A stretch of 64,000 nt of DNA, from the NCBI GenBank assembly GCA_016787995.1, contig JAEUTB010000103.1:39827-103826 (forward strand), given 5' to 3'. The notes under the pieces were generated by a model, which searched no databases, was not told where the DNA came from, and was given only the letters and a program-made list of their open reading frames with translations. How positions within the stretch are numbered: the first letter of the stretch is position 1; each line of letters starts with the position of its first letter. The DNA comes from Flavobacteriales bacterium. GTDB taxonomy: Bacteria; Bacteroidota; Bacteroidia; Flavobacteriales_F; PHOS-HE28. Position numbers and translations under genes: made by a program. Shown in pieces: positions 7,586 through 49,708 of the stretch.

Positions 7586-7595
7586 CCAAACCACC

Positions 7596-7796: not shown

Positions 7797-8004
7797 ACCC
7801 TCGGTACTGTGATGCATTCCTAGATGCGAACTCGTGCGAGCTCATATTGAACATGTACAACTGCCTACCCACTCGAAGGCTCACGAGCGTACTTCCCCGG
7901 ATTCCAATCGGACCATCACCATGGATCTACACAAGAGGTGAGTATTAAGACTTCGCGCATCTGATGAAGGGAGCGTAGAAATTTTCGTCCCTGTTCAAAC
8001 CCTT

Positions 8005-8772
8005 ATGCAGGTTCTCATTGAATGGAATCGACCTGCTCTCATCACAATGTCTACCCCACCTATGCAGATTGACAAATCAACTGGCACCGTCATCGCAGTC
8101 GCGTCATTCGCCGCAGGTCTCTCATTGAGTTTAATCACGACCGAGGAATCGCCCCCTGAGCTTAGAAGTCTATACAGCGGTGTCTCAAGCGTTCTTTTCG
8201 CCATTCCTTCCTCCTATCTATTCCTGCTCTTTACCGAAGCCTGGACGACTTACCACCACAAGCGCCAGAACAAGCAGGTCCAATTGAATTTTTACCAACA
8301 GTGCACGAACAAATTCAACATGTTCATCCATGTAACACGGGCGCTCGATCCAAACTTCGACGATTCTCTTGATCCACCCAATTACTATTCGGATTGGACG
8401 TTAGACCAAATCTCCGAAGCACTTGATCTGGCGGTGGAAGGTCGAGCAAGAAGATACGCCAAGACCGTTGAATTGATAGACGCGGAGCGCCAAATGCAGC
8501 ACGCTAAAATTGCCTATTCTTACACAACGCTATTCGCTGACCTGGCCTCGCTTGTCGATATCGAGGTGGCTAAGGGCAATCTCCACACCCATGATTACAT
8601 TAGCCGTCTTTATCGGTTCCGCGATTATCTCAGTCGGTTGACCGACCTTAAAAGTATAGGCTTCATTCAGTCGATGGCCAAGAACAAGCAGGAGCTCGAC
8701 TATCGCGTTCGCATGCTAGATCAGATCCAACTTCGCGAAGAAATCAGGAGGTTTGAGGTTAAATTTCCGTAG
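8005..8772 (+). CDS. hypothetical protein with two N-terminal TM helices and a ~170-aa C-terminal soluble domain; low-GC insertion
   Basis: ORF with GC of about 47% against a background above 62%. No family recognised. Confidence 0.55.
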   Translation: MQVLIEWNRPALITMSTPPMQIDKSTGTVIAVASFAAGLSLSLITTEESPPELRSLYSGVSSVLFAIPSSYLFLLFTEAWTTYHHKRQNKQVQLNFYQQCTNKFNMFIHVTRALDPNFDDSLDPPNYYSDWTLDQISEALDLAVEGRARRYAKTVELIDAERQMQHAKIAYSYTTLFADLASLVDIEVAKGNLHTHDYISRLYRFRDYLSRLTDLKSIGFIQSMAKNKQELDYRVRMLDQIQLREEIRRFEVKFP

Positions 8773-9520
8773 GAATCAGTCAGCCACTCTCTTGTCCGAG
8801 GACATCTACACCCCCACATACGTTCAGCGCTTGTTCGATCGGATGAGCAGTTCGTACGAGCGGATGAACTACCTCACGTCATTCGGTTTCTCTTTGCGCT
8901 GGAGGCGGCAGTTCTTGGCGGGCATCCCGGCCACCACTGCGCCGGTGGTGGTGATCGACCTCCTCACCGGCATGGGGGAGACCTGGGGAGCGGTGCACCG
9001 GCGCTTTCCCAACGCACGACTTTCGGCCTTGGACTTTTCGGAGGGTATGCTGCGCCATGCCCGTGCGAAGAGCGTTGCGCGCTATGGCGGCAGGGTGGAG
9101 GTACTGCACCAAGATGTTCTTCAGAACCACCTACCTTCCGCGCACTTCGACATCGTGACCTGTGCCTTCGGGCTCAAGACATTCAACCCAGAGCAATTAG
9201 CGCGGTTAGCACAAGAGACCCTACGCATTCTGAAACCCGGCGGTCGTTTCGCCTTCGTGGAGGTGTCGGAACCCAATGTGGTCCTGCTCCGCGCGCTTTA
9301 CGGACTGTACCTCGGTTCCGTGATCCCTGTGCTGGGCCGTGTCCTCCTCGGAGATCCGGCGGAGTACAAGATGCTCTGGCGCTATACGTCGGCCTTCGGC
9401 CATGCGAAAGCGGCGATGGCCATCTTCCAGGAAGCTGGCCTTCAGGCTGCGTACACCTCGCACTTCTACGGTTGTGCTACCGGCTTCCACGGCGTGAAGG
9501 CGGTTGCTGCGGTGGGTTGA
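8753..9520 (+). CDS. ubiE: class I SAM-dependent methyltransferase, UbiE/MenG-like
   Basis: N-terminal VQRLFDRMSSSYERMNYLTSFGFSLRWRR resembles UbiE/MenG, with a DLLTGMGE SAM motif. The true start may be the internal Met (~8843). Confidence 0.75.
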   Translation: MRLNFRRNQSATLLSEDIYTPTYVQRLFDRMSSSYERMNYLTSFGFSLRWRRQFLAGIPATTAPVVVIDLLTGMGETWGAVHRRFPNARLSALDFSEGMLRHARAKSVARYGGRVEVLHQDVLQNHLPSAHFDIVTCAFGLKTFNPEQLARLAQETLRILKPGGRFAFVEVSEPNVVLLRALYGLYLGSVIPVLGRVLLGDPAEYKMLWRYTSAFGHAKAAMAIFQEAGLQAAYTSHFYGCATGFHGVKAVAAVG

Positions 9521-11849: not shown

Positions 11850-12503
11850 TTGAGAACAACCAAAGAAGTGATGAAGAAGAACATCGGGCTCATGGGCCTT
11901 GCGCTGGTGATGACCAGCTCGCTCACCCTCCAAGCACAATACGCAGGAACGGACAGCACCTACACGCGGTGGTTCGTGGGAACCAGCTTGTTCGTTCTGG
12001 TGGGCAACCTGGCGCCCACCGACAATCCACCGGATTTCTTTCAACTCAACATCGGATACCGCTTGACCGGTCGAGATGTGATCACCGTGGAACCCAAGAC
12101 CTGGAAGTATGCCTGGCCCAATGGCATCCATCCGTTCCTGAACGATGCTTATGAAAAGCCCGAAGAGAAATTCCCCGGATACGTGCGCGAGTACGGTGTT
12201 TCACTGTCCTACCAACGCTTCTTCTTGAAGGGGCTCTATGCGGAGCTGAACCTGATGCCCACCCTGCAGCATTTCCAGAACGATCAAGGCAAGCGGATCG
12301 ACGATGGGTTCCAGGTCTTCAACACCTACCGGGCTGGCTATCATATCAAGCTCTTCATGGACCGCTTCTTCGTGCAGCCGTCCATCGCGATCACTCACCG
12401 GGCTTACCATACACGCTTGCCGGATGGGTTCAGGCAGCTGGATGACAAGTGGTCCAAGTTCATTTTCGGTGAGCCGGGTTTGCATGTGGGGTTCAATTTC
12501 TGA
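11850..12503 (+). CDS. outer-membrane beta-barrel-like protein (paralog 2), C-terminal …GLHVGFNF
   Basis: Paralog of 11039-11656. The start may be the Met at 11871. Confidence 0.7.
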   Translation: MRTTKEVMKKNIGLMGLALVMTSSLTLQAQYAGTDSTYTRWFVGTSLFVLVGNLAPTDNPPDFFQLNIGYRLTGRDVITVEPKTWKYAWPNGIHPFLNDAYEKPEEKFPGYVREYGVSLSYQRFFLKGLYAELNLMPTLQHFQNDQGKRIDDGFQVFNTYRAGYHIKLFMDRFFVQPSIAITHRAYHTRLPDGFRQLDDKWSKFIFGEPGLHVGFNF

Positions 12504-12616
12504 ATCGGGCTGCCAGATGCACCAAGGGTATCACCCTTCAAGTTGACCGTCGCTGGTTAGGTTCGTGCCGGAACGGATGATTATATTGTCCATCTGATCG
12601 ACCAAAACCAAGGATC

Positions 12617-13672
12617 ATGACACCACGATACCCTTCTTTCAATTCGAACGCTACCCTCTCGACCGAACGCATCGCTCAGCTTGCTCTTTGCATGCTGGTT
12701 CCAGCTGTGTTGCTTGCGCAGCCTACGCTACAATCATCAGATATGGGTTCGGTCGGCTCTACATTCGTTTACCAACAGGCCAATTATGTCACGTTGTCCA
12801 ACTCGGGGCCGAACCAGACGTGGGACTTTAGCAATGTGGTACCTACTGGAGCGTTGACGTTCAATTGGGTGGATGCCGACGATACTCAAGGTGGTAGCAA
12901 TTTTCCAGGTGCTACGGTGGCTGTTTCACCTGTTACCCTTTTCCAGCTCGATCAGTACTTCACCATTACGGCCACCGAGATGAATGATATCGGGACTTAC
13001 ATCCCGTTCATTCTCACCACCTGTTCCAACCCGATCAAGATCCTGAAGTTCCCACTGACTTACGGTGCCACTTGGACGGATCCCTTCACCTGCCTGCGTG
13101 ATGATTCAGGGATCATTTTCTACAATGTCACCGGGAACTTGACCGCCACCGCCGATGGGTACGGTACGGTTATAACCCCGGATGGTCCTATCAGTAACGT
13201 GATCCGGGTATCGATGACGAATACAAGCACGGCTGTTGGTGGTGGCATTACCACGGTCACCACGATCACCGCGCAGTACTACTGGAAGCCTGGTGCGGGA
13301 TCTTATGTCGCATACAATTATATCCAGAACGAAACGGTGAATGGAACACCGACAGGATCAGCCAGCCGGTTGCGTTATCTCGGCGGCAATTCCATCGGGT
13401 TGGATGAGCTGTTCGGTAATTCCATCGGCATCGATCTGGCTCCGAATCCAGCCGACGAAAGTGCATTGGTCACCTTCTCCACCCAGGGCAATTCGACCAT
13501 GGAGGTCTTCAACGACCATGGACAGGTGGTGCAGCTGTTGGCTCTGGGCCACAAGGCTCCGGGCATCCATCAGGAGCGGATCGACACGAGCTCGTTACCC
13601 GCTGGTCTCTACACCGTGGTGATCCGTTCGGCGACCGGTGACCAAGGCGTGAAGCGCCTGATGGTGCAGTGA
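12617..13672 (+). CDS. secreted protein with T9SS-type C-terminal sorting domain
   Basis: Signal peptide and a Thr/Gly-rich beta-rich body. C-terminal …LAPNPADESALVTF…GLYTVVIRS… resembles a Por_Secre_tail. Confidence 0.75.
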   Translation: MTPRYPSFNSNATLSTERIAQLALCMLVPAVLLAQPTLQSSDMGSVGSTFVYQQANYVTLSNSGPNQTWDFSNVVPTGALTFNWVDADDTQGGSNFPGATVAVSPVTLFQLDQYFTITATEMNDIGTYIPFILTTCSNPIKILKFPLTYGATWTDPFTCLRDDSGIIFYNVTGNLTATADGYGTVITPDGPISNVIRVSMTNTSTAVGGGITTVTTITAQYYWKPGAGSYVAYNYIQNETVNGTPTGSASRLRYLGGNSIGLDELFGNSIGIDLAPNPADESALVTFSTQGNSTMEVFNDHGQVVQLLALGHKAPGIHQERIDTSSLPAGLYTVVIRSATGDQGVKRLMVQ

Positions 13673-34239: not shown

Positions 34240-34681
34240 GGTTGGTAGGGGTTTGTTGGGGTTGCATTACAGGGGGCAGGACTAGCACGCGCTTCTCCTC
34301 CACGAGCTTCATCCAGGTATCGAAGGCGCGCTGGTAGTGTGCGGTGTACCGAAGGCTGTAGGCCTCATCGAGCATGCGCTTGCGCAGCCATTCCTGGGGC
34401 TGTAACCGCTCCAGGCTCTCAGGCCCGAACCATTCAGCCGCCAGCCGCACTTCGAACGCGCGGAACGTGTGCTCGTACCAGGTCCACCAGCCAATGGCAC
34501 CGAGGTGGTTGCGGTACAGGTCGCATGCGTCCTTGCTGATCGTGCCCACGGGGCGCACCAGGTCATCAAGGCACTGGCACCCGCTCTCCAGGATAAGGAG
34601 GTGGTACTCCAGCTCATCCATGCCGGTGGCCGCTTGCAGCTGCGCACGGGCTTCGTTGCTCAGTTTGATCAGGGCGTTCAT
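34226..34681 (-). CDS. phage early protein
   Basis: 151-aa ORF overlapping the start of the B-like gene. Confidence 0.5.
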   Translation of the reverse strand: MNALIKLSNEARAQLQAATGMDELEYHLLILESGCQCLDDLVRPVGTISKDACDLYRNHLGAIGWWTWYEHTFRAFEVRLAAEWFGPESLERLQPQEWLRKRMLDEAYSLRYTAHYQRAFDTWMKLVEEKRVLVLPPVMQPQQTPTNHVEC

Positions 34682-35580
34682 GCGGCGATGCGGGATTTGA
34701 GGACTTCACGTCGGACCGTACGCATGTCGAACTCGCGGGACAGCATACGGTTGGTGCGTTCGGGGTCGGTGAGGCCGTTAGCCTCGGCCACGAGTAGAGC
34801 CTCAGCTCGGAGGAACTCCTTGCGCTCCTTGGCACCTTCGGGCAGCACGGTAGTGAAGCGGCTACCAAAGCGGCTAAACACCTCTTCAAAGCCGTTCGTG
34901 CGGTTGCGAATGGCGCTGTCGATGCGCTTCTTCAATCCACGCGCACCAACCAGGTACATGCCGCAGCGGAACTCCAGTTCGTTGTAGATGCGCTTGAGGA
35001 GGAGGTAGGTATTGTTGTGCAGGTCACCAGCCTCGTCGATGACGATCACCGGATTCGGCAGCGCGCTCAGGTAGGCAATGGTGTCCAGGAGAACATCCTC
35101 CACCTTGCTCTTGTCGGGGTTGATGCCCACCGCCTGCGCCAGGGCGCGGATGAAGGCCACCTTGCGCGGGAAGCTGCCGCCGTTGATGTAGAAGGCGTTC
35201 GGCGTGTTGGCACAGAACTCCTTGGCCGCATGTGTCTTGCCCAGGCCAGCCTCGTCGCAGAAGATGGCGCTCAGGCCATCCTTGGCGCACATCTCAAGCT
35301 GGCGACGGATGGCACGGTAGGTCATTGTCTCCGCCGTTACCCAGGACTGGCGTGGGCTGAACTCGTAGCCCACCGTGCGTGCGATGCGGATCCACTTCTG
35401 CACGCTCAGCAGCTTGTCATTCGCGCGCCACTTGGCATTCTCGATGTTGCTGAAGTCGCTGCTGGTGATGCCGATGGAGACGGCATACTTGTTCCTGCTG
35501 GTGAAGCCGCTGGCGCGGTATGCCGATAGCAGCTTGCGTGCAATGCCTTCCTTGTGCTGTGTGCTGAGTGCTGGATTCAT
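34678..35580 (-). CDS. MuB-like AAA+ transposition ATPase
   Basis: Walker A CDEAGLGKTHAAKEF and Walker B VIVIDEAGDL. Positioned immediately downstream of the transposase. Confidence 0.8.
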   Translation of the reverse strand: MNPALSTQHKEGIARKLLSAYRASGFTSRNKYAVSIGITSSDFSNIENAKWRANDKLLSVQKWIRIARTVGYEFSPRQSWVTAETMTYRAIRRQLEMCAKDGLSAIFCDEAGLGKTHAAKEFCANTPNAFYINGGSFPRKVAFIRALAQAVGINPDKSKVEDVLLDTIAYLSALPNPVIVIDEAGDLHNNTYLLLKRIYNELEFRCGMYLVGARGLKKRIDSAIRNRTNGFEEVFSRFGSRFTTVLPEGAKERKEFLRAEALLVAEANGLTDPERTNRMLSREFDMRTVRREVLKSRIAA

Positions 35581-35600
35581 CGTTCGGGGGTCTGCTGGTT

Positions 35601-37649
35601 TTAGAAGTTCTCCTCGGCCCAGCGCTCGATGTCTTTGCGCTGTTGGGCTTCGGTGCGTGCGGTATCGAGTGCGGCCTTGTGGCTGCCTTTCTCGGTGAAG
35701 TATCCCTTGGTCACGGCCTCCTCTTCAGGGGCCATCGTGATCAGGTCATCGGTCGTGCGATTCGGCTTGCGGCGCGTGTGCGCCAGCGCATCGGCCAGGA
35801 GCATCTCGGCGAGCTGCTGCACCTGCTCGCGGTCATCGAGTACCTGGTTGATGGCCTCTTGGCTCAAGTCCCTCTTGAAGGCCTCGATGCTGGCGAGGTG
35901 AGCGTGGGTGTCCGGCGTGTGGTCCATCAGCGCCATCGGCACGTGCTGCACGGCTGGCACCAGGTATCGAAGGCTGCCTTCGTTGGCCGTGGCCAGCACG
36001 TCGCTCAGGTCGGCCGGGTCGAAGTAGACCTGGAAGCTGGTGCCGATGTGGCGCTGGAACTCGCGGGTGAGCAGCTGGTAGGGACGTGCTTCGCCGAGTA
36101 GCGTTGGGCAAAGGCCAGCGTTCGTGAGTTCGTTCGTCCATGGGTGGACGCTACCGAAACGCTCCAGGAATACAGGTCGGTCGATGGTGCGCAGGCTTCC
36201 GGCTGGCATCGCCTTCAGTGCGGCCTGGAATGCCTGGACCTTGTCGGCTCGCTCGCGGCCGATGGCTTCGTGTATCTGCTCGATCACCGAGGCTTCGTTC
36301 GGGAAGTCCTTACGGTGCAGGTTCAGCGCATCAGGGTTCGGCTGGTTCTCCTTGCGGCTGGTCACGTTGTGCCCGCTCCAGTTGAAGTTGCGGTTCACGT
36401 AGTGATCGTTGTGCTGCTTGAACCAGGGCTCGATCACCTTGGCGCGTGCGTTGCGTGCTGCGGCTGGCGTGTACTTCACGCCCATGCTGTCGTACCATTC
36501 GCCCAGCGCCTTGTGTCCGAGTCGGTCAGATTGCACTTGGTAGGGCAGTGCGTAGGTGCCGGTGATCTCGCGCATGTGGCGCACCGCGTTGGCCACTGCC
36601 TGCTTGCTCAGTTCGATGGTGTCCTCTTCACCGATGGCGTAGCCTACAGGGTACCAGCTGTGTGGGTCTAGCACCACGGCCACCTTCTTGCGGTGGTGGT
36701 AGGTTCGCTTGCCGCCCACCTCGCGTTGGAAGAGTAGCTCGTAGTCTGTGGCGTCGTGCACCCACAGGTACGTTGGCTGGGATGGGCGGCTGCGGTGAAC
36801 GACCACGCCGTAGGTGTTGTGGTACTGAGCGCTTCCCTTGGCGTAGACCGCTGCCGCGCGGCCGTTGGCGCCATCGCTGAGGAAGGCCTTAACGGTGTTA
36901 GCGCTGATGGTCTGCCAGCCGCGCGTTGCTGCGATCGCGTTGTAGTCCGATGCGATGGTGCGGAGCGGGTAGTTCTGTGGCCTTGCGGCCAGTAGGCGTA
37001 GCACCTTGCGCTGGTCATCGTCAGCCACCTTCGCGCGGTTGGCGTTGCCGTGGCCACCATGGATAAGCGAGGAGGCGCCAGCTTCACCCGACGTGCGTGC
37101 TTTGAGGTAGGCACGCTTGCGCGCCTCCAGTCGGGCGAACGAGGTGGGGAACTTGCTCGGCAGCTTGGCCTTGTTCAGCTTGATGTATTCAAGCACCAGG
37201 GCCTTCAGCGCCATCACGCTCATGCCGTAGTGCATCTGCACAGCCGCGCTCCCTCCCTCCTTGGTCACCGCATCAACGGTGGCCAGCATGGCCATGATGC
37301 GCGATGCGAGGAGCAGCTCGGCACGGCTCTCGGTGGAAAGACCCATGCCGTTGCCGCTGCGGAAGTCATTCAGGTGTGCCTCGTCCTTGGGGTCGAGAAC
37401 GAGCCAGCGCTCTACCATCTGCACGGCCACCACCTGTTCAGGCGTGCCGCCCAGGTGAGCGATGGCCATTGCCTTGATGGCCTCGGGCAGCGATGCCCAG
37501 TCCACCAGCTCTGCGGCGCTGCCCTTCGCCTTCTGTGCGATGGTGATCAGCCCAGCCTTCACCGCGTTCTCGTACGCGGCCTGCCCAAGGCACGCATCGT
37601 TCACCAACTCGTGGCGTTCGATGAGGTATGTGCCGTTGCGGTTGATCAT
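35601..37649 (-). CDS. Mu-type DDE transposase (MuA-like)
   Basis: 682-aa ORF with an N-terminal DNA-binding region and an rve-type catalytic core (…YLWVHDATDYELLF…, D-D-35-E spacing), plus the Mu transposase C-terminal region. Confidence 0.85.
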   Translation of the reverse strand: MINRNGTYLIERHELVNDACLGQAAYENAVKAGLITIAQKAKGSAAELVDWASLPEAIKAMAIAHLGGTPEQVVAVQMVERWLVLDPKDEAHLNDFRSGNGMGLSTESRAELLLASRIMAMLATVDAVTKEGGSAAVQMHYGMSVMALKALVLEYIKLNKAKLPSKFPTSFARLEARKRAYLKARTSGEAGASSLIHGGHGNANRAKVADDDQRKVLRLLAARPQNYPLRTIASDYNAIAATRGWQTISANTVKAFLSDGANGRAAAVYAKGSAQYHNTYGVVVHRSRPSQPTYLWVHDATDYELLFQREVGGKRTYHHRKKVAVVLDPHSWYPVGYAIGEEDTIELSKQAVANAVRHMREITGTYALPYQVQSDRLGHKALGEWYDSMGVKYTPAAARNARAKVIEPWFKQHNDHYVNRNFNWSGHNVTSRKENQPNPDALNLHRKDFPNEASVIEQIHEAIGRERADKVQAFQAALKAMPAGSLRTIDRPVFLERFGSVHPWTNELTNAGLCPTLLGEARPYQLLTREFQRHIGTSFQVYFDPADLSDVLATANEGSLRYLVPAVQHVPMALMDHTPDTHAHLASIEAFKRDLSQEAINQVLDDREQVQQLAEMLLADALAHTRRKPNRTTDDLITMAPEEEAVTKGYFTEKGSHKAALDTARTEAQQRKDIERWAEENF

Positions 37650-37894
37650 GCGCCCAGCTCGCCCTTCAGGCGGTTACGGTCCGTGGTGATGCGGTGAGCG
37701 GCCAGCCAAATGCGACGGGCCAGGGTCGAGTTGTCCGCGCGCCTTTCGGTGATCACCTTGCGCACGTAGTCCGGCGTGGTGCGTGCCACTTCGGCTATCA
37801 CAGGGCGGTCGCCCTTGCGCAGGTCGCGCCTAACCCTGGCCTTGGCGGCAGGGGTTAGCTCGTGAATGCTGCGGGTTGTTACTTTGTCCCTCAT
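37646..37894 (-). CDS. Ner-like small HTH DNA-binding protein
   Basis: 82-aa basic HTH protein immediately upstream of the transposase, overlapping it by 4 bp. Confidence 0.55.
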   Translation of the reverse strand: MRDKVTTRSIHELTPAAKARVRRDLRKGDRPVIAEVARTTPDYVRKVITERRADNSTLARRIWLAAHRITTDRNRLKGELGA

Positions 37895-37968
37895 AAGTGG
37901 GACAAACGTATTGAGGATCCTCTATACTGTCAAGAGGTATCTCAATAGATAGTTTTCAACATCGAAAG

Positions 37969-38385
37969 GTGGGAAGCATCATAGACCGGCTCCAGCAGTT
38001 CATTGAGGCGTATGGCCTCAATAACAACAGCCTCACGGTGAAGGCCGGTCTTAGCGTGGGCCTACTCGGCCAGGCCATCAAAAGCCGGAAGGGCCTGCAC
38101 AGCGACACCATACAGAAAATCCTCAATACCTACCCCGAGGTCAGCGCGGAGTGGTTCGTGATGGGAAGGGGCCGGATGTTGCGCGATGGGCCGAGCGTGC
38201 TGATTGCCGCAGAGCCTCACTCGCCCTATGGCCAGTCCAGGGAGGAGATTATCGAGGCAGCCAAGGAGGCTGCCCGCATAGCAGCTCGTGAAGAGCTCGC
38301 GGCCCTACAAGGGCGAAAACGACAAAGCCCCGTCGCCGTGAGTGACAACGGCGTCGGGGCTACCAAGAGGGATGCCGGGGAATAA
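37969..38385 (+). CDS. phage repressor-like HTH protein (divergent from the early operon)
   Basis: N-terminal HTH_3-like (…YGLNNNSLTVKAGLSVGLLGQAIKSRKGLHSDTIQKIL…), divergent from the ner/A/B operon with a 74-bp spacer. Confidence 0.6.
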   Translation: MGSIIDRLQQFIEAYGLNNNSLTVKAGLSVGLLGQAIKSRKGLHSDTIQKILNTYPEVSAEWFVMGRGRMLRDGPSVLIAAEPHSPYGQSREEIIEAAKEAARIAAREELAALQGRKRQSPVAVSDNGVGATKRDAGE

Positions 38386-38791
38386 CCTACCGCCTCGAAT
38401 GCGTGATGCGTTCGGCCTGGTGTGCGCGATCGCCGCTGCCGCCTGGTCTTTGCTGCGCAAGTTGCTGGGCGCTCGTTAGGTCTGCGGCTGGTGCGCTACT
38501 GCTGCGGGCGGCGAGCTACTCCTAGTTGGCTCCATGCATGGTGCTTTGCGCCATGACCAGACCGATACTATCGAAGGCCAGAGCGCGCAATGTGCGGAGG
38601 TCTCAAGTGTTGTTTTTCGCTCTTCGTCGGAGCAGTGCCTTTGCTCCGTGGTCTACCATGACCACCCGAAGACACATGTTCCGCAGATTCTTGATAGCGC
38701 TGGCGTTCTCCTTATTCCTACGATACCTGGTGAAGCGTAGGAGACCCTGATAGAATGGCTGCTGGCTTATAGCTTTGCAGCATGTTCATCT

Positions 38792-38961
38792 CGCTCACTC
38801 GTCAGATCGACCAGGTTGGGTTCTATGTGAACCCCTTCTACATCATCGCCTTGGTTCCTCTTACCAAAGGATGTAAAGTGGTTGTTACTGGCCAAGAGTT
38901 CAATGTGACGCAGACCGAGGACGAGGTCTTGACGTTGATCGACATGCAGCGCAATCGATGA
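38792..38961 (+). CDS. 59-aa protein with FlbD-like sequence pattern
   Basis: MFISLTRQIDQVGFYVNPFYI…LTKGCKVVVTGQE… resembles the LTRLNG..FYVN…LT.GKK.VV.E pattern of the FlbD family. ATGA-coupled to the next ORF. Confidence 0.4.
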
Positions 38962-39329
38962 AATGGGATAACGTCAAGATCATGGTGCTAGGCCGAGAGG
39001 TTGAGGTGCGGTCCATTGCCATGGACTCGGACCGGCCCATCGACCCCACGTACCTCGGTAGTGTAGTGCTGGAGGCAAATAGGCAATGGGAAGCTATCCT
39101 GCGTTCGATGCCTTCAACGAAACAGGTTGACCTCACGCATGCTATCTTCTCACCAGGTAACCTCGAAGAACCACGCGCATGGCTTTTGAAATGGGCCGCG
39201 ATGAATGGATTGGAGATAGTCTCCGATGTCCAGTTCGTCAATGATGACCGCTGGGTCGTAGGCTTTGCTGGTGAATTCCCCAAGAGCTATCCGGAGCAGC
39301 TGGTTCGAGTGACCCTTGAGCTGACATAA
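38958..39329 (+). CDS. hypothetical protein, low-GC cassette gene 2
   Basis: 123-aa ORF, GC about 53%. Confidence 0.5.
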   Translation: MKWDNVKIMVLGREVEVRSIAMDSDRPIDPTYLGSVVLEANRQWEAILRSMPSTKQVDLTHAIFSPGNLEEPRAWLLKWAAMNGLEIVSDVQFVNDDRWVVGFAGEFPKSYPEQLVRVTLELT

Positions 39330-39341
39330 ACCACAGAAGCA

Positions 39342-39686
39342 ATGTACCTCGATGACAAGATCCTTGATGCTGTAAGCCTCGCATCTAGATGTTATCCAGG
39401 GGCAATGTTGTCCATTGGTGTTTCAAAGAAGAGTGTGTTGGCGGGATGCCTGCGTGGGGTTGAAGCAGTGATAGAAGTGGAAACAAATAGCCCGAGCTAT
39501 CAGTTGGTGGCACATATTGGGGGGCTGCCAGTTGTTGTCGTTGCAGATGGGTTGCCCATCCACATCATTGCAGAGTTCGATGTTGTGATTGATGGTCAAC
39601 GGTCCATGGCACTTGAACGCATTCCTGTTGAGAAAGAGTTAACACTGGAAGAAATACTCGCAATCGAAGGCCTCGCTAGAGAGTAG
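39342..39686 (+). CDS. hypothetical protein, low-GC cassette gene 3
   Basis: 114-aa ORF, GC about 49%. Confidence 0.5.
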   Translation: MYLDDKILDAVSLASRCYPGAMLSIGVSKKSVLAGCLRGVEAVIEVETNSPSYQLVAHIGGLPVVVVADGLPIHIIAEFDVVIDGQRSMALERIPVEKELTLEEILAIEGLARE

Positions 39687-39722
39687 CGCAACCCGCAACA
39701 TGCCCGGCACGTACCACGTGCT

Positions 39723-39983
39723 ATGAGCAGAAAGACGTGTGTGGTAGTGCGCTGGAAGAAGAACGATCTCTGGGAAGCCTGGTCAAGTGTGGCCGCTTTC
39801 AGCAGCTTCAACCCAAGCTATCCAACTCACTACATCAGGCGCAGAACTGTCAATGGCGTGTTCGAGAACTATAGGCTTGAGATGCGCCGTGTCGAATGGC
39901 GCAACAGCCCTGTGAGGCTACGCATCAAAGGCGTTGCACGTCGCAAACCAGGCCCCAAGGGACCCCGGAAGAAGGCGCCTTGA
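39723..39983 (+). CDS. small basic protein, unknown
   Basis: 86-aa ORF, Arg/Lys-rich C-terminus. Confidence 0.4.
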   Translation: MSRKTCVVVRWKKNDLWEAWSSVAAFSSFNPSYPTHYIRRRTVNGVFENYRLEMRRVEWRNSPVRLRIKGVARRKPGPKGPRKKAP

Positions 39984-40021
39984 TTCTGCGTTGAAGTGCC
40001 GACGATGGCTGCTTCGCGGCC

Positions 40022-40768
40022 ATGATACTCACTCGACTCGGCAACAAGAGGCGCATGGCCTCGAAGCTGTTGCCACACATTCCCGAGCACCAACTTTGGG
40101 TGGAGCTCTTCTTCGGCGCCGGTGGCATGTACTTCAATAAGCCACGCGCACCGCGCAGCATCGTCAACGATCTGGACAGCGAGGTCTACAACCTCTTCTG
40201 CGTGATCCAGGATCGATCCAAGGAGCTGGAGGAGGCGTGGTGCAGCACACCCATACACGACGATCTCTGGAAGGCTTGGAAGAAGAGCGCGCCGACCGAT
40301 CCAGTGTGGCGAGCGGTGCGGTTCCTCTTGGTGAGCAACTTCGGCTTCCTCGGCCTGCCGCAAACGCTCAAGCTGAACAACAAGAACGCGAAGCGACTGC
40401 TATACCATCGCATCGGCCAAACGCGCGATGCATTCTTCGATACCGAGTTCCTGCATTGCGACTTCCGCCAGGTGCTCTGCCGTATCCCGATGAGCAAGAG
40501 CGAGCGCATGAACGCCTTCGTGTATGCCGACCCTCCATACCTGGACACCAAGTGCAACTACAACGATGCATCAACGTGGAAAGAGAAGGACACTCGTGAC
40601 CTCTTCGAAGAGCTTGTATCGAGCGGCCTGCGCTTCGGCATCTCCGAGTTTGATCATCCGGTGGTACTAGCGTTGGCGAAGCAGTACGGACTGCGCGTGA
40701 TCACCATCGGAGAGCGACACAACCTGCGGAACAAGCGAACGGAAATCTACATCACGAACGTTGATTGA
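40022..40768 (+). CDS. Dam-like N6-adenine DNA methyltransferase (D12 class)
   Basis: N-terminal FFGAGGMYF SAM motif and catalytic YADPPY. Confidence 0.85.
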   Translation: MILTRLGNKRRMASKLLPHIPEHQLWVELFFGAGGMYFNKPRAPRSIVNDLDSEVYNLFCVIQDRSKELEEAWCSTPIHDDLWKAWKKSAPTDPVWRAVRFLLVSNFGFLGLPQTLKLNNKNAKRLLYHRIGQTRDAFFDTEFLHCDFRQVLCRIPMSKSERMNAFVYADPPYLDTKCNYNDASTWKEKDTRDLFEELVSSGLRFGISEFDHPVVLALAKQYGLRVITIGERHNLRNKRTEIYITNVD

Positions 40769-40820
40769 ACCGTTCGCTGTGAATTGATACGCATGGCTTC
40801 GATCGGTTCTTTGTTGCTCA

Positions 40821-41369
40821 ATGGATTCGTCAACGGGTAATCTGCTGCGGGGGGCGCCCTTAACGGGGCGCCCCTGTCCCGTTGACCAGCATGCGTTGGA
40901 GTACCTCAAGCTCTACGCAGGTGCTATCCGGTACTGTATCAATGCGCACCATGTACCAGACCACGCTCGTGCAGATGTACATCAGGACGTGAGCGTGCGC
41001 GTGATCCGTCGCTTCAGGAAGTTCGGTCCTGTAACAGGGGCATCGAGCAGTTGGATCTACAGGGTGACGCGCTGCGCATGCATCAGCTTCTGGCGCGATC
41101 ACCGCAAGGGGTCGGAACCCAGCGACAAGCTGGACCTGGTAGCCGCTGAAACGACTCCGGCCGATGAGTGGCTCGATAGGCAGGATGCGCACCAACGACT
41201 CCACCTGGCCGTGGCCACGCTGCCACCGATGAGCAAGGAGATCATGCGCCGTGTGCTCTTGGGACAATCGCTGGTGGAGATCGCTCACGCGCTGGAGATC
41301 GAACATGGAACCGCTAAGGTGGCCGCGCATCGTGCCCGCCTTCTCTTGCGCAAGCGCCTTATCCGATGA
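40821..41369 (+). CDS. sigma-70 family (ECF-like) RNA polymerase sigma factor
   Basis: Region 2 and a C-terminal region 4 HTH (…SKEIMRRVLLGQSLVEIAHALEIEHGTAKVAAHRARLLLRKRL). The start may be downstream of the annotated Met. Confidence 0.7.
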   Translation: MDSSTGNLLRGAPLTGRPCPVDQHALEYLKLYAGAIRYCINAHHVPDHARADVHQDVSVRVIRRFRKFGPVTGASSSWIYRVTRCACISFWRDHRKGSEPSDKLDLVAAETTPADEWLDRQDAHQRLHLAVATLPPMSKEIMRRVLLGQSLVEIAHALEIEHGTAKVAAHRARLLLRKRLIR

Positions 41370-41461
41370 ACGCAGAGACACGTCGACTCACCTGGTTGGC
41401 CTTCGTGGCCTTCGTCTTCGCAGTGGTGGCGCTGGTGCTCTGTGGCTGCACCCTACTCTGA
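41366..41461 (+). CDS. 31-aa single-TM peptide, ATGA-coupled to the sigma factor gene
   Basis: MNAETRRLTWLAFVAFVFAVVALVLCGCTLL; too short to assert. Confidence 0.3.
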   Translation: MNAETRRLTWLAFVAFVFAVVALVLCGCTLL

Positions 41462-41472
41462 TCCATCTTACC

Positions 41473-41661
41473 ATGGCACGCAACCCCGAGATCACCAAAC
41501 GTCGCAACGCCGAGATCGTGAAGGAGTACGACCGGCTCCGCTCCATCCGCGTGGGCCGTGCGCGGAAGTATACTCCCGATTACTGCATCACGCAGCTCGC
41601 AGAGAAGTTCTTCCTAAGCGAACGCACCATCGAGGATATCGTCTGGAAGAAGCGCGACTAG
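41473..41661 (+). CDS. small HTH/Mor-like regulator candidate
   Basis: 62-aa basic protein (…RRNAEIVKEYDRLRSIRVGRARKY…LSERTIEDIV…). Confidence 0.45.
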   Translation: MARNPEITKRRNAEIVKEYDRLRSIRVGRARKYTPDYCITQLAEKFFLSERTIEDIVWKKRD

Positions 41662-43307
41662 GCTGGTCGTCGGCAGAGGATGTAGCCCAGCGTCGATGTC
41701 TTGTTGGTCGACTGGCTCGCTCCAGTGGCCAGGATCGGTAACGCTGCTGCCGTGCTGCTGGGTGTGGTGGTACTGGTCCACACACTGATCGAGATGTTGA
41801 ATGGCGCGTAGTTCAGCACAACACCGCCCTGTCCGTTCACTATGGTCCTGTGCAATCCCAAAGGCGGCACGAACCAATCGTCAAACCCTTCGATCACCGC
41901 ATTCGCACCTGCGCTTATCGCAGTGGACCAGTTAGCGGTGGGTATGGTCGGCGCCCTGTAGTACCACGTCTCGGTCAGGTGGTCCACAATGATGCCATCC
42001 GCGTAGGTGTTTCCGCCCAAGCGGTCTGTGAAACGCCGGTTGTCACCATACATGTTCAGGCTCAAGAGCGTTCCCCATGTGTTGCCCGGAAGCGCAACCT
42101 GCAATGGGTATGGATGCACGATGCTCCGAAACTTCAGCAGCGCGTAGAACGTGCCCTCGTCGCCGAACTGGAATGCTGTGGTCTGGCCTGAGTGGAAGGT
42201 CTCGCTCATCGCGTAGTTGATGCCACTGCGATAGTTGCTGACGTCGAGCGGCTGCGTTGCACGGAGGCCAATGGTCGTACCGTCTGGCCTGGTGATGATG
42301 CTGTCGGCGATGGTGCGATCGCGATTGGCCGCAGACGGAACCTCCAGCGGCGAGCCAATGGGATCGCCTCGGCTGTCCAAGATGGTGACCACACCATCGG
42401 GCACCGTTGCGATAACGCTCTGTCCTGACATCGGGAATGCCTGAGCCACCTCCGCACCTCCAGTGTTGCGGATACTCACTCCTCCGTTAGGCGCCGTTAT
42501 GGACACCACCGCGCCACTTGCCACCGGTATGTCCCCACCGATCTGTGCACCTCCGGTCTGCCTGAGCTGCGCGATGCCAGGTGGCGGTGAAGTCGGGCAC
42601 GCCGTGGCCACGAACGGCGTCATCGCGGGTAGCGTCACCGGCAGGCCATCGCTGTTCGTATGCGTCACGTCGGGCAGCACGTGCTCGTCTGGGCCTTCCA
42701 GCTCCACGCGGTAGGTACCGTTGCTGTTGCGCACTACTACCAGGTTATCCTCTGGCGGTGCGGTGTACGGTTCTATCTCCAGGCCAAGCGTACCGGCCTC
42801 TGCGAAGTTGTACTGCTTGCTGGTGGAGTTGTCCAGGAGCACGCACCGGTACGTTTGCGCGTACATGTACATGTAAGGCGGTGCATCGGCCTTCTTCTGT
42901 AGCCCCACGCGGCTGAGAGGACTGAAGTGGTCACCGCTGGCGCCGTGCATCTGCATGTGCAGCTTCCGCAAGAGGCCGATGAACTCCATTCCCCTGCGCT
43001 GGCCAGCAGCGCCGTGGTTCGTGTCCTGCACGGTCTCCACGCTCAGGTATATGGTGATATCCATGGTGAGCTGCTGCGTATTGTCTCCGATATCGTCGAC
43101 CTTGGCAGCGTCGAACTGGAGGAATACCGCAGGGGCACGGTACGGGATCCAGTTGCCGTTCTGGTCCACCACCTGGTCCTGTCCGTAGTACAGGTCGATG
43201 TGCTTGATCTCCGGCACCTTCTCCTTGATGATGGCGCAGAGCTCTTGGTAGGCCTTGCCCCAATCCTGAAGCGTGGGGTCTAGGTTCTGGTCAATGATCC
43301 AGCTCAT
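41658..43307 (-). CDS. phage structural protein (549 aa), Ser/Thr/Gly-rich C-terminal half
   Basis: Last gene of the minus-strand late operon. Confidence 0.5.
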   Translation of the reverse strand: MSWIIDQNLDPTLQDWGKAYQELCAIIKEKVPEIKHIDLYYGQDQVVDQNGNWIPYRAPAVFLQFDAAKVDDIGDNTQQLTMDITIYLSVETVQDTNHGAAGQRRGMEFIGLLRKLHMQMHGASGDHFSPLSRVGLQKKADAPPYMYMYAQTYRCVLLDNSTSKQYNFAEAGTLGLEIEPYTAPPEDNLVVVRNSNGTYRVELEGPDEHVLPDVTHTNSDGLPVTLPAMTPFVATACPTSPPPGIAQLRQTGGAQIGGDIPVASGAVVSITAPNGGVSIRNTGGAEVAQAFPMSGQSVIATVPDGVVTILDSRGDPIGSPLEVPSAANRDRTIADSIITRPDGTTIGLRATQPLDVSNYRSGINYAMSETFHSGQTTAFQFGDEGTFYALLKFRSIVHPYPLQVALPGNTWGTLLSLNMYGDNRRFTDRLGGNTYADGIIVDHLTETWYYRAPTIPTANWSTAISAGANAVIEGFDDWFVPPLGLHRTIVNGQGGVVLNYAPFNISISVWTSTTTPSSTAAALPILATGASQSTNKTSTLGYILCRRPA

Positions 43308-43858
43308 TTAACAAGGGTTTGAACGACGGTTTTGAGGATGGTCTCGCGCATGGTGTTGACCAGCACGGCCGAGCGGCCCATGTACTGGCGCTTCGGCATG
43401 TAGGTGAGCATGCGTCTGGTGTGCGCCTTCACTGCACCGCCACGGCGTAGCACCTTGCCGGTGCGCAGCCTGGCCGCGTGGTCGCGCCTGGTGTGCGCGC
43501 GAACGCTCGCAGTGGTCTCGATGGTGCCGCCTTCGTTGTGGATCTTGGCATAGGGCACCTGCGGGCCACCAGCGGCCAGCTGAATGCCGTTCCAGTCCGA
43601 GCGGGTGATGCGTAGGCTGTTCATCAACAGGCCTCGCCCTTTCAGGATGCGCCCCTGCACAGCTCTGCCGCCAACGGTGCGCGGAGCCTTGGTCTTCGGC
43701 CAAAGCACCAGGCGCTCGTCGGTGAAGCCCTGGTTGCGGAAGCTCATGAGGAAGTGGCGCAGGGCATCGTTGCCCATTCGCTTGGGCACAGTGGTAAGCA
43801 GCGCCTTCTTGAGGTTGCTCACCTTGGCGTTCAGTTGCTGTACTCCGCGTGCTGGCAT
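43304..43858 (-). CDS. virion morphogenesis protein, Mu gpG-like
   Basis: Position immediately after the portal/F gene, with a basic C-terminal half. Confidence 0.5.
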   Translation of the reverse strand: MPARGVQQLNAKVSNLKKALLTTVPKRMGNDALRHFLMSFRNQGFTDERLVLWPKTKAPRTVGGRAVQGRILKGRGLLMNSLRITRSDWNGIQLAAGGPQVPYAKIHNEGGTIETTASVRAHTRRDHAARLRTGKVLRRGGAVKAHTRRMLTYMPKRQYMGRSAVLVNTMRETILKTVVQTLVK

Positions 43859-43946: not shown

Positions 43947-46820
43947 TCATTGGTAGCGCTTCACAAGGATCCCGGCTCGCTGCTTGTCCAGGTTCTCGTC
44001 GTACGCATCCAGATAGAAGGTTCGCACCTGCAACGAGCTTCCCATCTGCACCCGCACAGGTACCCGCAGTGCACCTGCATCGGTGAACTTGATGTAGAGG
44101 CGATCGCCTTTCTGGTCCACCCACACCTCGTCCGGATCCAGCAGCACGTTAGGTAGTTGGTCTACCAGCGAGGCGCGTTGCGGTTCCTTGTTCAGCTTCC
44201 TATCCAGGGTCTGGCTATCTAGCTGAATGGGCCTGCCCGAGAAGTCGTTGATGACCACCACGCCCTTGTCGTTGGCATTACGAGCAAACCAACGCTGCGC
44301 TTCTTGCACCGATTCGGTATTGCTCTGTATCGGCGGCAGCGGGGAGGATGCAATGGCCTTCCATGTTCTGCTCTCCGCATCCGACCCATAGCTGTCTCGA
44401 ACGCCAAGCGTGGGCACCTTGCGCTCGCTGCTATCAAGCTCCTTGAGGTAGCTTCGGTTCAGGTCGAACACCTCGCCAGTGATGGCTTTGTTCTTGTCGA
44501 AGCCGCGCTTCTTCATTCTCGCCAGTTCGCCGCTCACCTCCAGCTGCTCCCACGCGTTGCGGGTCTGTTGCGTTAGCTCGTCGCCGGCTGGGCCATCGGG
44601 CGAGCTCACTAGCGTGCAGCGGCAGCCGTCGCCGTTGGGTGGCGCGATCACCTTGAGGATCGGATCGTTCACCGGCCATCGCTTGCCATCGAGCGCGGCG
44701 TGTGCGGGCCGAACTTGCGCATCGCCTTGCGTCCAGTACTCCACGAAGGGTAGTGCATCCGCGTTGCGTTGGATGTCGAACCAGCGGCTCGCTTGCAGGC
44801 CGGTGTTAACGGCGGTCTGGTACTCCGTGGCCAGGTATCGCTTGGTGTACTTCCCCACCACGCCGCTTTCGTCCACCAGGCGTTTGAAGTCCGAGAAGCC
44901 TGTGCTTTTGCGGACCATCGCGTTCAGTTCGGTCGCCTGTGCCAGCGTCTTGACCGCACTGAATCGCGCGATGTTCTGCTCCATGGCCGCGTAGGCCACA
45001 TGGTCCGGTTGGTCGTAGGCCACCTGTTGCAGCCCGCTGCGGAACCGAAGGGCCAGGCCATCGCTCAGGATGCCACGTACCTCTTCGAAGTAGCTCTGCG
45101 ACCAGGCTGCACCACCGTGGGTATCGCGCAGCAGTTGCTCCAGGGCTTCGGCCGCCACCTCTGGTGTGTTCTCCGCACGCACGTTCAGGCGTCCACCGCA
45201 CATGCCACAGCTGCCCAGCTCGGCGCGTGGCCACTGAGCTGTGGCCCCGTCTTCATCTTCGTCCTCGGTGCTAGGCGTGTCCTCGCCCTCGCCCTTCTTC
45301 TTGCCGCTCTGCCTGCCGTTGCCAGGTGGGTTGGCTTCGGGCGCTGGCTTCGGTGGCAAGTCCTTCATGCCGTTGAGCATCTCGTTGATCCGCTCCTCGC
45401 TCACCTTGGGGAAGGCCGTTCGGATGATCGGGCGTGCCACGCTCTCGGGGATCTCGCCGTTGGCCACCTTGGTGATCAGCTCCAACAGGCTCTGCACTTG
45501 TGCGCCGTTCATCGCCGTGTCCTGGATACTCAGGTCGCCGGTGATGGGCAAGGCCGGGTCGGCTGGTTTGTCCGGGTCGGCAGGGGTGTTAGGGTCAGCG
45601 CCAGGCCCCAGCTCCCCAGGCATGCGTCGCGCACCCAGGATGCGGATACCGGTGCGTGCCTCGATGTGCTCGGGGTCGATATCGTAGTGGACAGCCAGCT
45701 TGGCCACGGCGTCCACCAGCTCACCGGCGCTCATGTCGCGGAACTCGTCCCACTCGAACCGCAGGCCTGCGAAGGGGTACCCCAACGCCACCAGGCGCGG
45801 CATCAGCTCCTCGTTGATGACGTGCTGCACGAAGGTCTTATCGCTCTCGTGCCGGTCCTCGGCCACACCCTCAAGCACCTTCATGCTGCCGTAGGTGCCG
45901 CTGGCGTCCTTGTTGTCCGTGGTGCCGTCCTGGCCCATTAGACGCTTGCTCATCTCGGAGTTCATCCGGCTGATGAGCTTGTCGAACAGGTCCGCCGGTG
46001 ATGTGCTCGGCGTGGGTGCGATGCCGAACTCCTCATCGCCCTGGATCACGGCGTAGGCGCTGCTCATCATGTTCTGCATCACCGTCTCCAGCTGGCGTAC
46101 GCGCTTGGCATCGTTGCCGCGTGTCTTCACCCACCGGGCTGGGATGCCGTAGGTGCCGGTGTAGGCGCTCCAGCTGCCGATGGCGTACTTCTTCACCACG
46201 GCCACCGGCGCCACGCGCTCCAGCAGGCCCAGGTCCTCGGGTCGGCCCACTTCGATCAGGTAGGTGCGCAGCGGTTCCTCGCGGAACTGGTAGCCCGTCT
46301 CTTCGCCCTGGCGCCTGGCCACGATGCCCGAGTAGGGCAGGACGTTGCGCGGGTCGATGAGGTTCACCATGCGCAGCTGGCCAGGTGCGCGCAGCTCGCC
46401 CAGCTCTATCAGGCTGTGCCCGACGAAGCGAGCGCCCACCACGTACTTCACGAAGTCCAGGAACCAGGGTGCCTCCAGCAGCCGGGCGAGTTCCGGCTTG
46501 CTATCCCCCTTGGCATCCACCAGCTTGAACTTGGCACCCTGCACGCGCAGCTCCCTGGTCTCGATCAGGCTGCCCAGGTGGGCGTCCTTCAGGATGGAGT
46601 CGTACAGGTCCATGAGCTTCGCACGGTCTGGCCGGTAGAGGTTCTTGGCCATGTTCAGCGCCACGTTCCAATCCGCCATGTCCACCGTGCGGTGGGGCAT
46701 GTTCCACCGCTCCAGGTCGGGCATGCGGTAGCTCTGCATCTGGGCGGGGTGGATCAGGCTCGGCGAGAAAACCGCCCTGAGGCGCTGGATCATGTTCGGA
46801 CGTGTCATTGTGCCACTCAT
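43947..46820 (-). CDS. portal protein (DUF935/Mu gp29-like) fused to Mu gpF-like head morphogenesis domain
   Basis: 957-aa ORF with a portal-like N-terminal ~480 aa and an acidic linker. The C-terminal region carries the Phage_Mu_F signature …YWTQGDAQVRPAHAALDGKRW…PPNGDGCRCTL…. Confidence 0.8.
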   Translation of the reverse strand: MSGTMTRPNMIQRLRAVFSPSLIHPAQMQSYRMPDLERWNMPHRTVDMADWNVALNMAKNLYRPDRAKLMDLYDSILKDAHLGSLIETRELRVQGAKFKLVDAKGDSKPELARLLEAPWFLDFVKYVVGARFVGHSLIELGELRAPGQLRMVNLIDPRNVLPYSGIVARRQGEETGYQFREEPLRTYLIEVGRPEDLGLLERVAPVAVVKKYAIGSWSAYTGTYGIPARWVKTRGNDAKRVRQLETVMQNMMSSAYAVIQGDEEFGIAPTPSTSPADLFDKLISRMNSEMSKRLMGQDGTTDNKDASGTYGSMKVLEGVAEDRHESDKTFVQHVINEELMPRLVALGYPFAGLRFEWDEFRDMSAGELVDAVAKLAVHYDIDPEHIEARTGIRILGARRMPGELGPGADPNTPADPDKPADPALPITGDLSIQDTAMNGAQVQSLLELITKVANGEIPESVARPIIRTAFPKVSEERINEMLNGMKDLPPKPAPEANPPGNGRQSGKKKGEGEDTPSTEDEDEDGATAQWPRAELGSCGMCGGRLNVRAENTPEVAAEALEQLLRDTHGGAAWSQSYFEEVRGILSDGLALRFRSGLQQVAYDQPDHVAYAAMEQNIARFSAVKTLAQATELNAMVRKSTGFSDFKRLVDESGVVGKYTKRYLATEYQTAVNTGLQASRWFDIQRNADALPFVEYWTQGDAQVRPAHAALDGKRWPVNDPILKVIAPPNGDGCRCTLVSSPDGPAGDELTQQTRNAWEQLEVSGELARMKKRGFDKNKAITGEVFDLNRSYLKELDSSERKVPTLGVRDSYGSDAESRTWKAIASSPLPPIQSNTESVQEAQRWFARNANDKGVVVINDFSGRPIQLDSQTLDRKLNKEPQRASLVDQLPNVLLDPDEVWVDQKGDRLYIKFTDAGALRVPVRVQMGSSLQVRTFYLDAYDENLDKQRAGILVKRYQ

Positions 46821-49617: not shown

Positions 49618-49708
49618 CAGATCGCGCGCGCGCGAATTTCTCGCATGGTACGGGGTACGTACCCCGTTACATGGTTTCTCCTTTTGGTGGCGGGTTCATC
49701 GGCGGTGA

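Follow-up and report, generated by a model that had tools for sequence, protein, structure and literature searches.

Introduction

Are the small genes that separate the repressor gene from the methyltransferase gene of a Mu-like prophage acquired cargo, and what might their products do? The question is raised by a stretch of 64 000 nucleotides from contig JAEUTB010000103.1 of a Flavobacteriales bacterium (called the window below; all coordinates refer to it unless a related locus is named). Four plus-strand open reading frames (ORFs), denoted A–D, lie there within a Mu-like prophage of a Bacteroidota (Flavobacteriales-type) host, downstream of a CI-like repressor gene (Rep) and upstream of a gene for a Dam-family DNA methyltransferase (Dam). 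An earlier note, made from the sequence of this stretch, had described the four ORFs as a single low-GC cassette typical of a horizontally acquired moron.

Comparison with related loci showed a hypervariable slot of about 1–1.6 kb which turns over gene by gene and holds A, B and C as accessory cargo, a conclusion of which we have high confidence. D was found to be a core gene and not part of the cargo. An ordinary moron-type hot spot of a Mu-like prophage, furnished with an operon of non-enzymatic binders or inhibitors (A–B–C), is an explanation of the locus to which we give an even chance.

The genes of the cassette

Gene A (38782–38961, + strand) encodes a soluble, acidic orphan protein of 59 residues (pI 5.0). 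Gene B (38958–39329, +) encodes an acidic protein of 123 residues (pI 4.8) and gene C (39342–39686, +) an acidic singleton orphan of 114 residues (pI 4.6). Gene D (39723–39983, +) encodes a very basic protein of 86 residues (pI 11.6). The start codon of B and the stop codon of A overlap in ATGA, and 12 nt separate the stop codon of B from the start of C. Hydrophobic membrane segments are absent from A, B and C. The number and sizes of the ORFs, the overlap, the 12 nt gap, the basic character of the 86-residue protein and the position inside the prophage between the repressor gene and Dam all agree with the earlier note. Its end of the cassette at 39983 was retained, while the start was moved from 38792 to 38782, where A begins.

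Searches of Pfam, PHROGs, PADLOC and NCBIfam gave no significant match for A–D, so that the 123- and 114-residue proteins do lack a recognizable family, as had been stated, and PDB sequence searches with all four gave nothing significant. No match was obtained for A, C and D by tblastn against phage records or for the region 35000–43500 by megablast. With B and D as queries, IMG/VR, JGI metagenomes and GTDB genomes returned nothing; in these collections relatives were reached through MuA only.

A variable slot between conserved flanks

Seven related loci were compared for their slot content (L002, L003, L004, L012, L014, L015 and L016); a further locus, L001, is identical to the window. L012 was reached through a distant homologue of B, and L014, L015 and L016 were reached through MuA. 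L014 is the metagenome-assembled genome 'Flavobacteriales bacterium UBA7690', L015 is 'Bacteroidota bacterium KLAP54' and L016 is from IMG/VR. The order Rep, slot, D, Dam, sigma factor, Mor-like ORF and structural genes is common to all of these but L016.

Within this backbone the content of the slot changes from locus to locus. The window holds A, B and C. In L002 and L003 a 155-residue membrane protein with a Zn-ribbon-like end is followed by A, B and an unrelated 88-residue gene where C would be, and L004 holds A and B only. The slot of L012 contains, besides a B of 35% identity, a small hydrophobic ORF and, on the opposite strand, a membrane-anchored OB-fold protein of 218 residues; A and C are both absent from it. 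That of L015 contains a homologue of the 218-residue protein only. L014 has unrelated ORFs of 77 and 161 residues together with a truncated paralogue of D. In L016 the repressor gene is followed by two membrane proteins, and A and B are absent. Among the window, L002/L003, L004, L012, L014 and L015, five different cargo sets were found between Rep and D, the pattern of a region of genomic plasticity (RGP). A and B are both missing from three relatives (L014, L015 and L016) and A–C are all missing from L014 and L015. Since C is absent from L004, and A–C from L014 and L015, the window carries extra DNA between genes that are adjacent in relatives, as a moron does.

The cargo of the relatives includes one protein of suggestive family. 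The 218-residue protein found in L012 and L015 gives two family matches, one to phrog_8545 ('superinfection exclusion Sie-like', category moron/host takeover; E = 4e-15) and one to the Pfam family tRNA_anti-like; in two relatives the same slot therefore carries a protein that matches the Sie-like family. The earlier suggestion of superinfection exclusion is borne out for the slot in this respect and not for A–C themselves, which have no PHROG match to the Sie-like family (phrog_8545) and no hydrophobic anchor. Against PADLOC-DB 2.0, no defence model was matched by A–D or by ten cargo proteins of the related loci, and only Dam gave matches, to methyltransferase models; a defence module, also suggested earlier, gained no support from the slot proteins of the window or its relatives.

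That A–C are phage developmental or regulatory genes, which might modulate the repressor, the sigma factor or transposition and would form a lineage-specific core, is fairly unlikely. Their place between the immunity region and the sigma and Mor-like regulators would suit such a role, as would the perfect conservation of the A protein in four loci, and an ECF sigma factor commonly comes with an anti-sigma partner. A core role in regulation is nevertheless disfavoured, since L014 and L015 have the same backbone and none of A, B and C, and L012 has it without A and C; moreover, the cargo is swapped at precise junctions and the composition of A–C is atypical.

The composition was measured along the prophage. 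The dip in GC content reported earlier is real: the value is 52.5% over 38782–39983 and 50.9% over A–C, with a prophage mean of 60.5%. The background, previously given as 62–66%, was measured as 58–64%. In windows of 1.2 kb (mean 59.9%, standard deviation 2.7) the cassette lies about 2.8 standard deviations low. It is the lowest GC stretch of the prophage and the second lowest of the whole window, only the host region at 7.4–8.9 kb being lower. A–C have 49–53% GC compared with 60% for the flanking genes, the deviant composition of a moron. The GC content at third codon positions (GC3) is 0.68 for A, 0.62 for B, 0.47 for C and 0.66 for D, compared with 0.76–0.83 in core phage genes, and the deviation in GC and GC3 is strongest for C and its 88-residue replacement. 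The description as a moron, to which both the atypical composition and the presence, absence and replacement in syntenic relatives correspond, therefore stands for A–C and fails for D. In the host part of the window, further low-GC stretches were noted at 7400–8900 (49–51%) and 12000–13000 (53%).

Two features were observed at the left edge of the slot. A membrane protein of about 150 residues with a C-terminal Cys/His motif is encoded directly downstream of the repressor gene in L002 (2466–2933) and in L016 (6506–6955, − strand). It gives weak matches to Ada_Zn_binding and DUF6233, its two carriers are otherwise divergent and the window is without it; it is further accessory cargo at the left edge of the region. 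Between Rep and the slot of the window lies a candidate gene of 24 codons (38676–38750, +) for the hydrophobic peptide MFRRFLIALAFSLFLRYLVKRRRP, which has a basic C-terminus. In an alignment with L004 read by eye, five synonymous and three conservative changes were counted, and peptides with similar ends are encoded at the corresponding position in L012 (9774–9950) and L015 (5726–5559, −). The ORF is a candidate member of the conserved backbone and not of the variable cargo, and its product may be a small peptide of the membrane, perhaps with a toxin-like or exclusion-related role.

Genes A and B

The close relatives L001, L002/L003 (about 93% DNA identity) and L004 (about 87%) were reached by look-ups of exact and near matches, and selection on the genes was estimated. 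The A protein is 100% identical in four loci, with 4–6 synonymous and no non-synonymous differences. The pN/pS ratio is about 0.3 for B and 0.26 for D; the values for Dam and the sigma factor are 0.10 and 0.28, respectively. These ratios, with the excess of synonymous changes, indicate that A, B and D are maintained as coding sequences by purifying selection.

No homologue of A was found beyond the four loci, and a word-indexed search of 5.8 billion protein clusters returned the self-match only; A is missing from L012, L014, L015 and L016. An FlbD-like pattern that had been seen in the 59-residue protein was not recovered: Pfam scans at E ≤ 1 and E ≤ 10 gave no match to FlbD/SwrD (PF06289) and returned DUF3955 (E = 0.19) only, and the filters of HMMER may hide very weak matches.

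B founds a family of five members. Two close relatives were found by the word-indexed search of the same clusters, and an exhaustive search with a profile, run on 1.84 billion representatives, added two distant full-length relatives (33–35% identity). Trp, Phe, Pro, Gly, Leu, Ile, Val and Met, with one Ser and one Thr, occupy the 21 positions that are invariant in the family. No acidic, basic, His or Cys residue is invariant and no catalytic residue is conserved, which argues against an enzyme. An AlphaFold2 (AF2) model from three near-identical sequences was poor (pLDDT 57.5). The model from the five sequences reached a pLDDT of 68 (above 80 in the C-terminal half) and a pTM of 0.62, and a generic ACT/ferredoxin-like sandwich is softly predicted from it. 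Helical-repeat proteins (P0007–P0012; PPR, TPR/Sel1 and 'NPSAWVxKAALNAGA' / 'PSAW..AGA' repeats) were tried as homologues of B and rejected, most likely being the product of score accumulation over one helix motif of B, P(R/M)(A/E)WL(L/V)xW.

The order of a smaller and then a larger gene (59 and 123 residues) with an ATGA overlap resembles that of a type II toxin–antitoxin pair acting in addiction or abortive infection, with A as the labile antitoxin and B as the toxin. An NCBIfam match of A to the MazE/PemI antitoxin points the same way, below the threshold of that model (E = 0.011, 15.5 bits against a cutoff of 50). The Pfam scan of A gave no MazE/AbrB match and BLASTP of A against unverified MazE and AbrB sequences was not significant. 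B occurs without A in L012 and L013, so that the two do not consistently co-occur, and it matches no toxin family in Pfam, NCBIfam or PADLOC, nor does its predicted fold match a toxin. Because B stands without A in two lineages and bears no toxin signature, the toxin–antitoxin explanation, already raised in the earlier note, is weakened to the point of being very improbable.

Gene C and the swapped segment

The swapped unit was delimited at both ends. Homology by blastn to L002, L003 and L004 ends at 39314–39317 and resumes at 39684–39687, and the segment exchanged (39315–39686) comprises the last five codons of B, the 12 nt spacer and gene C. A unit of this extent explains the differing C-termini of B among the relatives. 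C is cleanly absent from L004, where the end of B and the element upstream of D are 6 nt apart.

C returned the self-match only in the search of 5.8 billion protein clusters, and tblastn against phage records was empty. The only other copy, on the Logan contig L001, is identical. C was called as a gene in two independent assemblies, and the 88-residue gene of L002 and L003 is packed as tightly as C. A partly non-functional cassette, in which C especially would be a chance ORF or the decaying relic of an earlier insertion, would fit the single identical copy and the most deviant GC3 (0.47), and is the least credible of the alternatives given a frame of 114 codons in DNA of 49% GC that begins 12 nt past B and ends exactly at the boundary element, the two independent gene calls and the equally packed 88-residue alternative.

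Gene D, Dam and the right boundary

Homologues of D (39–84% identity) lie directly upstream of Dam in L002, L003, L012, L014, L015 and L016. In L016 the D–Dam pair is about 9 kb away, beyond the MuA/MuB early genes, and is still paired. As D is kept directly 5′ of Dam even where the pair has moved, we take it from this synteny that D is a core gene coupled to Dam, outside the accessory cargo. The unit of three or four genes proposed earlier is thus reduced to A–C, D being tied to Dam in all relatives that have the pair; homologues that are conserved core genes, which the earlier note had named as evidence against its reading, are what was found for D. No helix–turn–helix (HTH) or other family match was obtained for D in Pfam, NCBIfam or PDB searches, and the sequence collection searched contains no record of the exact product. 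The arrangement of an anti-CRISPR gene with its associated regulator (acr–aca) was not found, D being conserved, giving no HTH match and travelling with Dam rather than with the cargo.

Dam (40022–40768, +) is an orphan D12/Dam-family N6-adenine DNA methyltransferase and forms part of the conserved right flank. It matches Pfam PF02086 (E = 3.7e-15), PHROG 56 (E = 1.3e-46) and the PADLOC MTase_II and orphan-MTase models, and the ORF list of the window contains no nuclease gene adjoining it. The closest relatives of the phage Dam in IMG/VR (L005–L011; 43–47% identity) are all on phage contigs of 30–38% GC which share with the 60% GC prophage no gene other than Dam. They were dropped as context evidence, being unrelated phages.

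The right edge of the slot is a boundary element of 36 nt (39687–39722, +) ahead of D (CGCAACCCGC..CACGTACCACG), in which CGCAACCCGC precedes the perfect hairpin or palindrome GCACGT-ACC-ACGTGC; the element ends 1 nt before the start codon of D. The window shares it with L002, L004 and L012, and L014 and L015 have a diverged version. CACGTNNNACGTG, the exact palindrome, occurs only once in the window, and the version of the element in L014 (TCACGT..ACGTGA) keeps the pairing of the hairpin or palindrome. The element might serve as an operator, as a promoter or in the control of translation.

At about 40005–40023 (+) lies a hairpin, ATGGCTGC-TTC-GCGGCCAT, in which the A and U of the start codon of Dam are paired. 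The hairpin is conserved in sequence among five related loci (L002, L012, L014, L015 and L016), and no covariation or compensatory change was found among the related loci. An upstream ORF of six codons (MAASRP) overlaps both the hairpin and the ATG of Dam and in L014 is fused in frame to Dam. In the com–mom system of phage Mu, a small basic regulator acts through an RNA hairpin, located where a DNA-modification gene starts, to activate the translation of that gene. The hairpin and the invariable linkage of D and Dam suggest control of this kind, and a side possibility, drawn by analogy, is that D may, like Com, act on the start-codon hairpin and activate translation of the phage Dam. In both systems the modification gene is always immediately preceded by the gene of a small basic protein, and its start codon is covered by a conserved hairpin. 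They differ in that D has none of the zinc-finger cysteines, the enzyme is a D12 methyltransferase rather than Mom, and the hairpin shows no covariation.

Expression signals

As the host belongs to the Bacteroidota, the window was scanned for the −7 box of this phylum, TAnnTTTG. Six matches were found (8.4 expected), two of which lie directly before the first genes of operons, those starting with A and with the ner-like gene. The box before A, TAGCTTTG (38770–38777, +), is separated from the start codon by 4 nt (the motif ends 5 nt upstream) and is a candidate promoter of A–B–C, as inferred from its motif and position. The box on the ner side (37910–37903, −) lies 9 nt before the ner start and downstream of TTGACA, with a spacer of about 16 nt counted by hand. 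A scan for sigma-70-type promoters and terminators performed at chance level, and no terminator-like site was found in the stretch from the repressor gene to A. RNA folding of the Rep–A intergenic region is not unusual (z = −1.3), and an Rfam scan of 37800–41800 gave nothing above threshold.

Operator-like inverted repeats (ATTGAG-N3-CCTC) were found in the Rep–ner region only, and there is no repressor-operator-like site near A. The early promoter region itself (37903–37947) was seen to consist of TTGACA, a spacer of about 16 nt and TACGTTTG, and is overlapped by the inverted 13-mers ATTGAGGATCCTC and GAGGTATCTCAAT, which are likely repressor operators. A third, weaker operator-like copy was noted at 38111–38129 inside the repressor gene.

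The surrounding prophage

Homology by tblastx to related phages extends from about 28 kb to beyond 50 kb of the window, which places the cassette well inside the Mu-like prophage. To the left of the slot, Rep (37969–38385, +) has weak PHROG repressor matches and forms the conserved left flank, with homologues at the equivalent place in L002, L012, L014, L015 and L016. The homologue in L016 has 241 residues and a C-terminal GDSMEP motif judged by eye to be of S24 type. The MuA-like and MuB-like genes occupy 34678–37649 (−). The MuA-like transposase gene (35601–37649, −) is divergent from the repressor gene, as are those for the MuB-like ATPase and the ner-like protein.

To the right of Dam, an ECF-type sigma factor (40821–41369; TIGR02937, 63 bits against a cutoff of 43) is followed by a weak Mor-like ORF (41473–41661). 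This arrangement was observed to be kept in L002, L012, L014 and L015. To our knowledge, a sigma factor of ECF type beside a Mor-like ORF is an unusual late-regulation set-up for a transposable phage. Right of the Mor-like ORF, a minus-strand block contains small-terminase-like, TerL, portal–MuF fusion and neck genes, and after it a plus-strand block contains protease, sheath, tape-measure and baseplate genes. The fusion, of 957 residues (43947–46820, −), joins a Mu-type portal to a Mu F-like head-morphogenesis domain, and PBECR2 is also among the Pfam matches of its L002 homologue. A perfect palindrome of 18 nt, ACGGGGTACGTACCCCGT (49650–49667), is found in the short gap that separates the divergent late operons, with the small-terminase-like gene running leftward and the protease gene rightward, and is a candidate binding site for the phage sigma or Mor-type late regulators.

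Proposed function of the cargo

The model for the locus combines the slot, whose architecture is very probably as described, with a mode of action of A, B and C on which the odds are balanced. The slot sits between a conserved left flank made up of the repressor gene and the hydrophobic-peptide ORF and a conserved right flank made up of the 36 nt element, D, Dam, the sigma factor and the Mor-like ORF. A–B–C would form one short operon, transcribed from the host-type promoter box before A, with a possible contribution of read-through out of the repressor gene. Its expression would be independent of the late regulators and would probably also occur in the lysogen: a promoter outside repressor control and read-through from the repressor gene would each give this outcome, for which the evidence is thin. 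The products, being small, acidic and soluble and bearing no catalytic signature, would bind and block another protein rather than catalyse a reaction.

Two classes of target may be considered, and we would divide the probability between them roughly evenly. The target could be a host defence system, in which case the slot and the adjacent orphan Dam would form an anti-defence cluster. It could equally be a host function needed by competing phages, blockage of which would lead to exclusion, as the Sie-like cargo in the relatives suggests. That at least one of A, B and C (or the 88-residue alternative) founds a new family of Bacteroidota phage inhibitors, blocking host defence or a host function needed by competitors, we regard as possible at somewhat less than even odds.

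Several points weigh against this model. The function of A–C is argued from comparison of sequences, among which there is no homologue with a known role, and small acidic proteins can also be regulators or assembly factors. The GC3 of the B family is 0.60–0.64 in three lineages that share only 33–35% identity, so that the low GC of B is not simply the mark of recent acquisition. The coding status of C depends on its open frame, its tight packing and the independent gene calls, the sole other copy being identical. The promoter call consists of one 8 nt motif, with no good −33 element by the −7 box before A, and no terminator-like site was found after C. Lastly, the moderate confidence of the B model keeps its fold assignment soft.

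Relation to known systems

The closest described parallel is provided by the RGPs of the Mu-like phages of Pseudomonas aeruginosa (D3112/DMS3/PaMx73 group), which are fixed sites of short accessory ORFs (Cazares et al., 2014; PMC4378225). These RGPs form GC valleys (46% compared with 64%), carry mostly ORFans and have no recognizable recombinase target, and RGP G holds anti-CRISPR genes (PMC4378225). The present locus likewise combines a Mu-like phage, a fixed site in syntenic genomes, a GC valley (51% compared with 60%) and ORFan cargo, and again no recombinase target is recognizable at the junctions. It differs in the host phylum, Bacteroidota, in its position directly downstream of the repressor gene and upstream of the D–Dam–sigma–Mor block, and in that its cargo has no sequence similarity to that described. 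Unlike aca1 of the RGPs, D has no detectable HTH and is tied to Dam. The locus is a further case of an RGP-type slot, in a different phylum and map position and with cargo of no known family.

In mobile-element anti-defence clusters, small genes of unknown function cluster with orphan methyltransferases (Pinilla-Redondo et al., 2020; PMC7648647). The small hypothetical genes beside an orphan DNA methyltransferase match this description. The locus differs in that no known anti-CRISPR, anti-CRISPR-associated or anti-restriction gene serves as an anchor, no dedicated anti-defence library having been searched.

Lambdoid morons and lysogenic-conversion genes of the immunity region, such as rexAB of lambda and sieB of P22, offer another comparison; the term moron is used in the Hendrix/Juhala sense, a definition of which is quoted in PMC4378225. 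The likeness lies in the insertion between genes adjacent in relatives, the deviant composition, the position next to and co-oriented with the repressor gene, and the Sie-like protein in the slot of two relatives. In contrast, the products of A–C are soluble and acidic and not membrane-bound, the promoter is a candidate only and a terminator was not found. Tip of D3112 and Aqs1 of DMS3 are small exclusion proteins of Pseudomonas Mu-like phages which block type IV pilus function. As would be proposed for A–C, they are small soluble proteins of Mu-like phages encoded near the immunity or early region, and they bind a host protein; there is no sequence or fold similarity and the host is without the same target context, so that the analogy is one of mode of action only.

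Anti-CRISPRs, exclusion proteins and many defence systems were first discovered in the accessory hot spots of temperate phages, and almost nothing comparable is known from the Mu-like phages of Bacteroidota. The region is a typical phage ORFan region, and its three or four compact candidate genes have their value as a candidate list and not as a discovery. The slot is precisely delimited by conserved flanks and is usable to harvest more cargo from metagenomes. If a new inhibitor family is indeed founded here, the slot between the repressor gene and the D–Dam block would be a discovery hot spot in the Mu-like phages of Bacteroidota.

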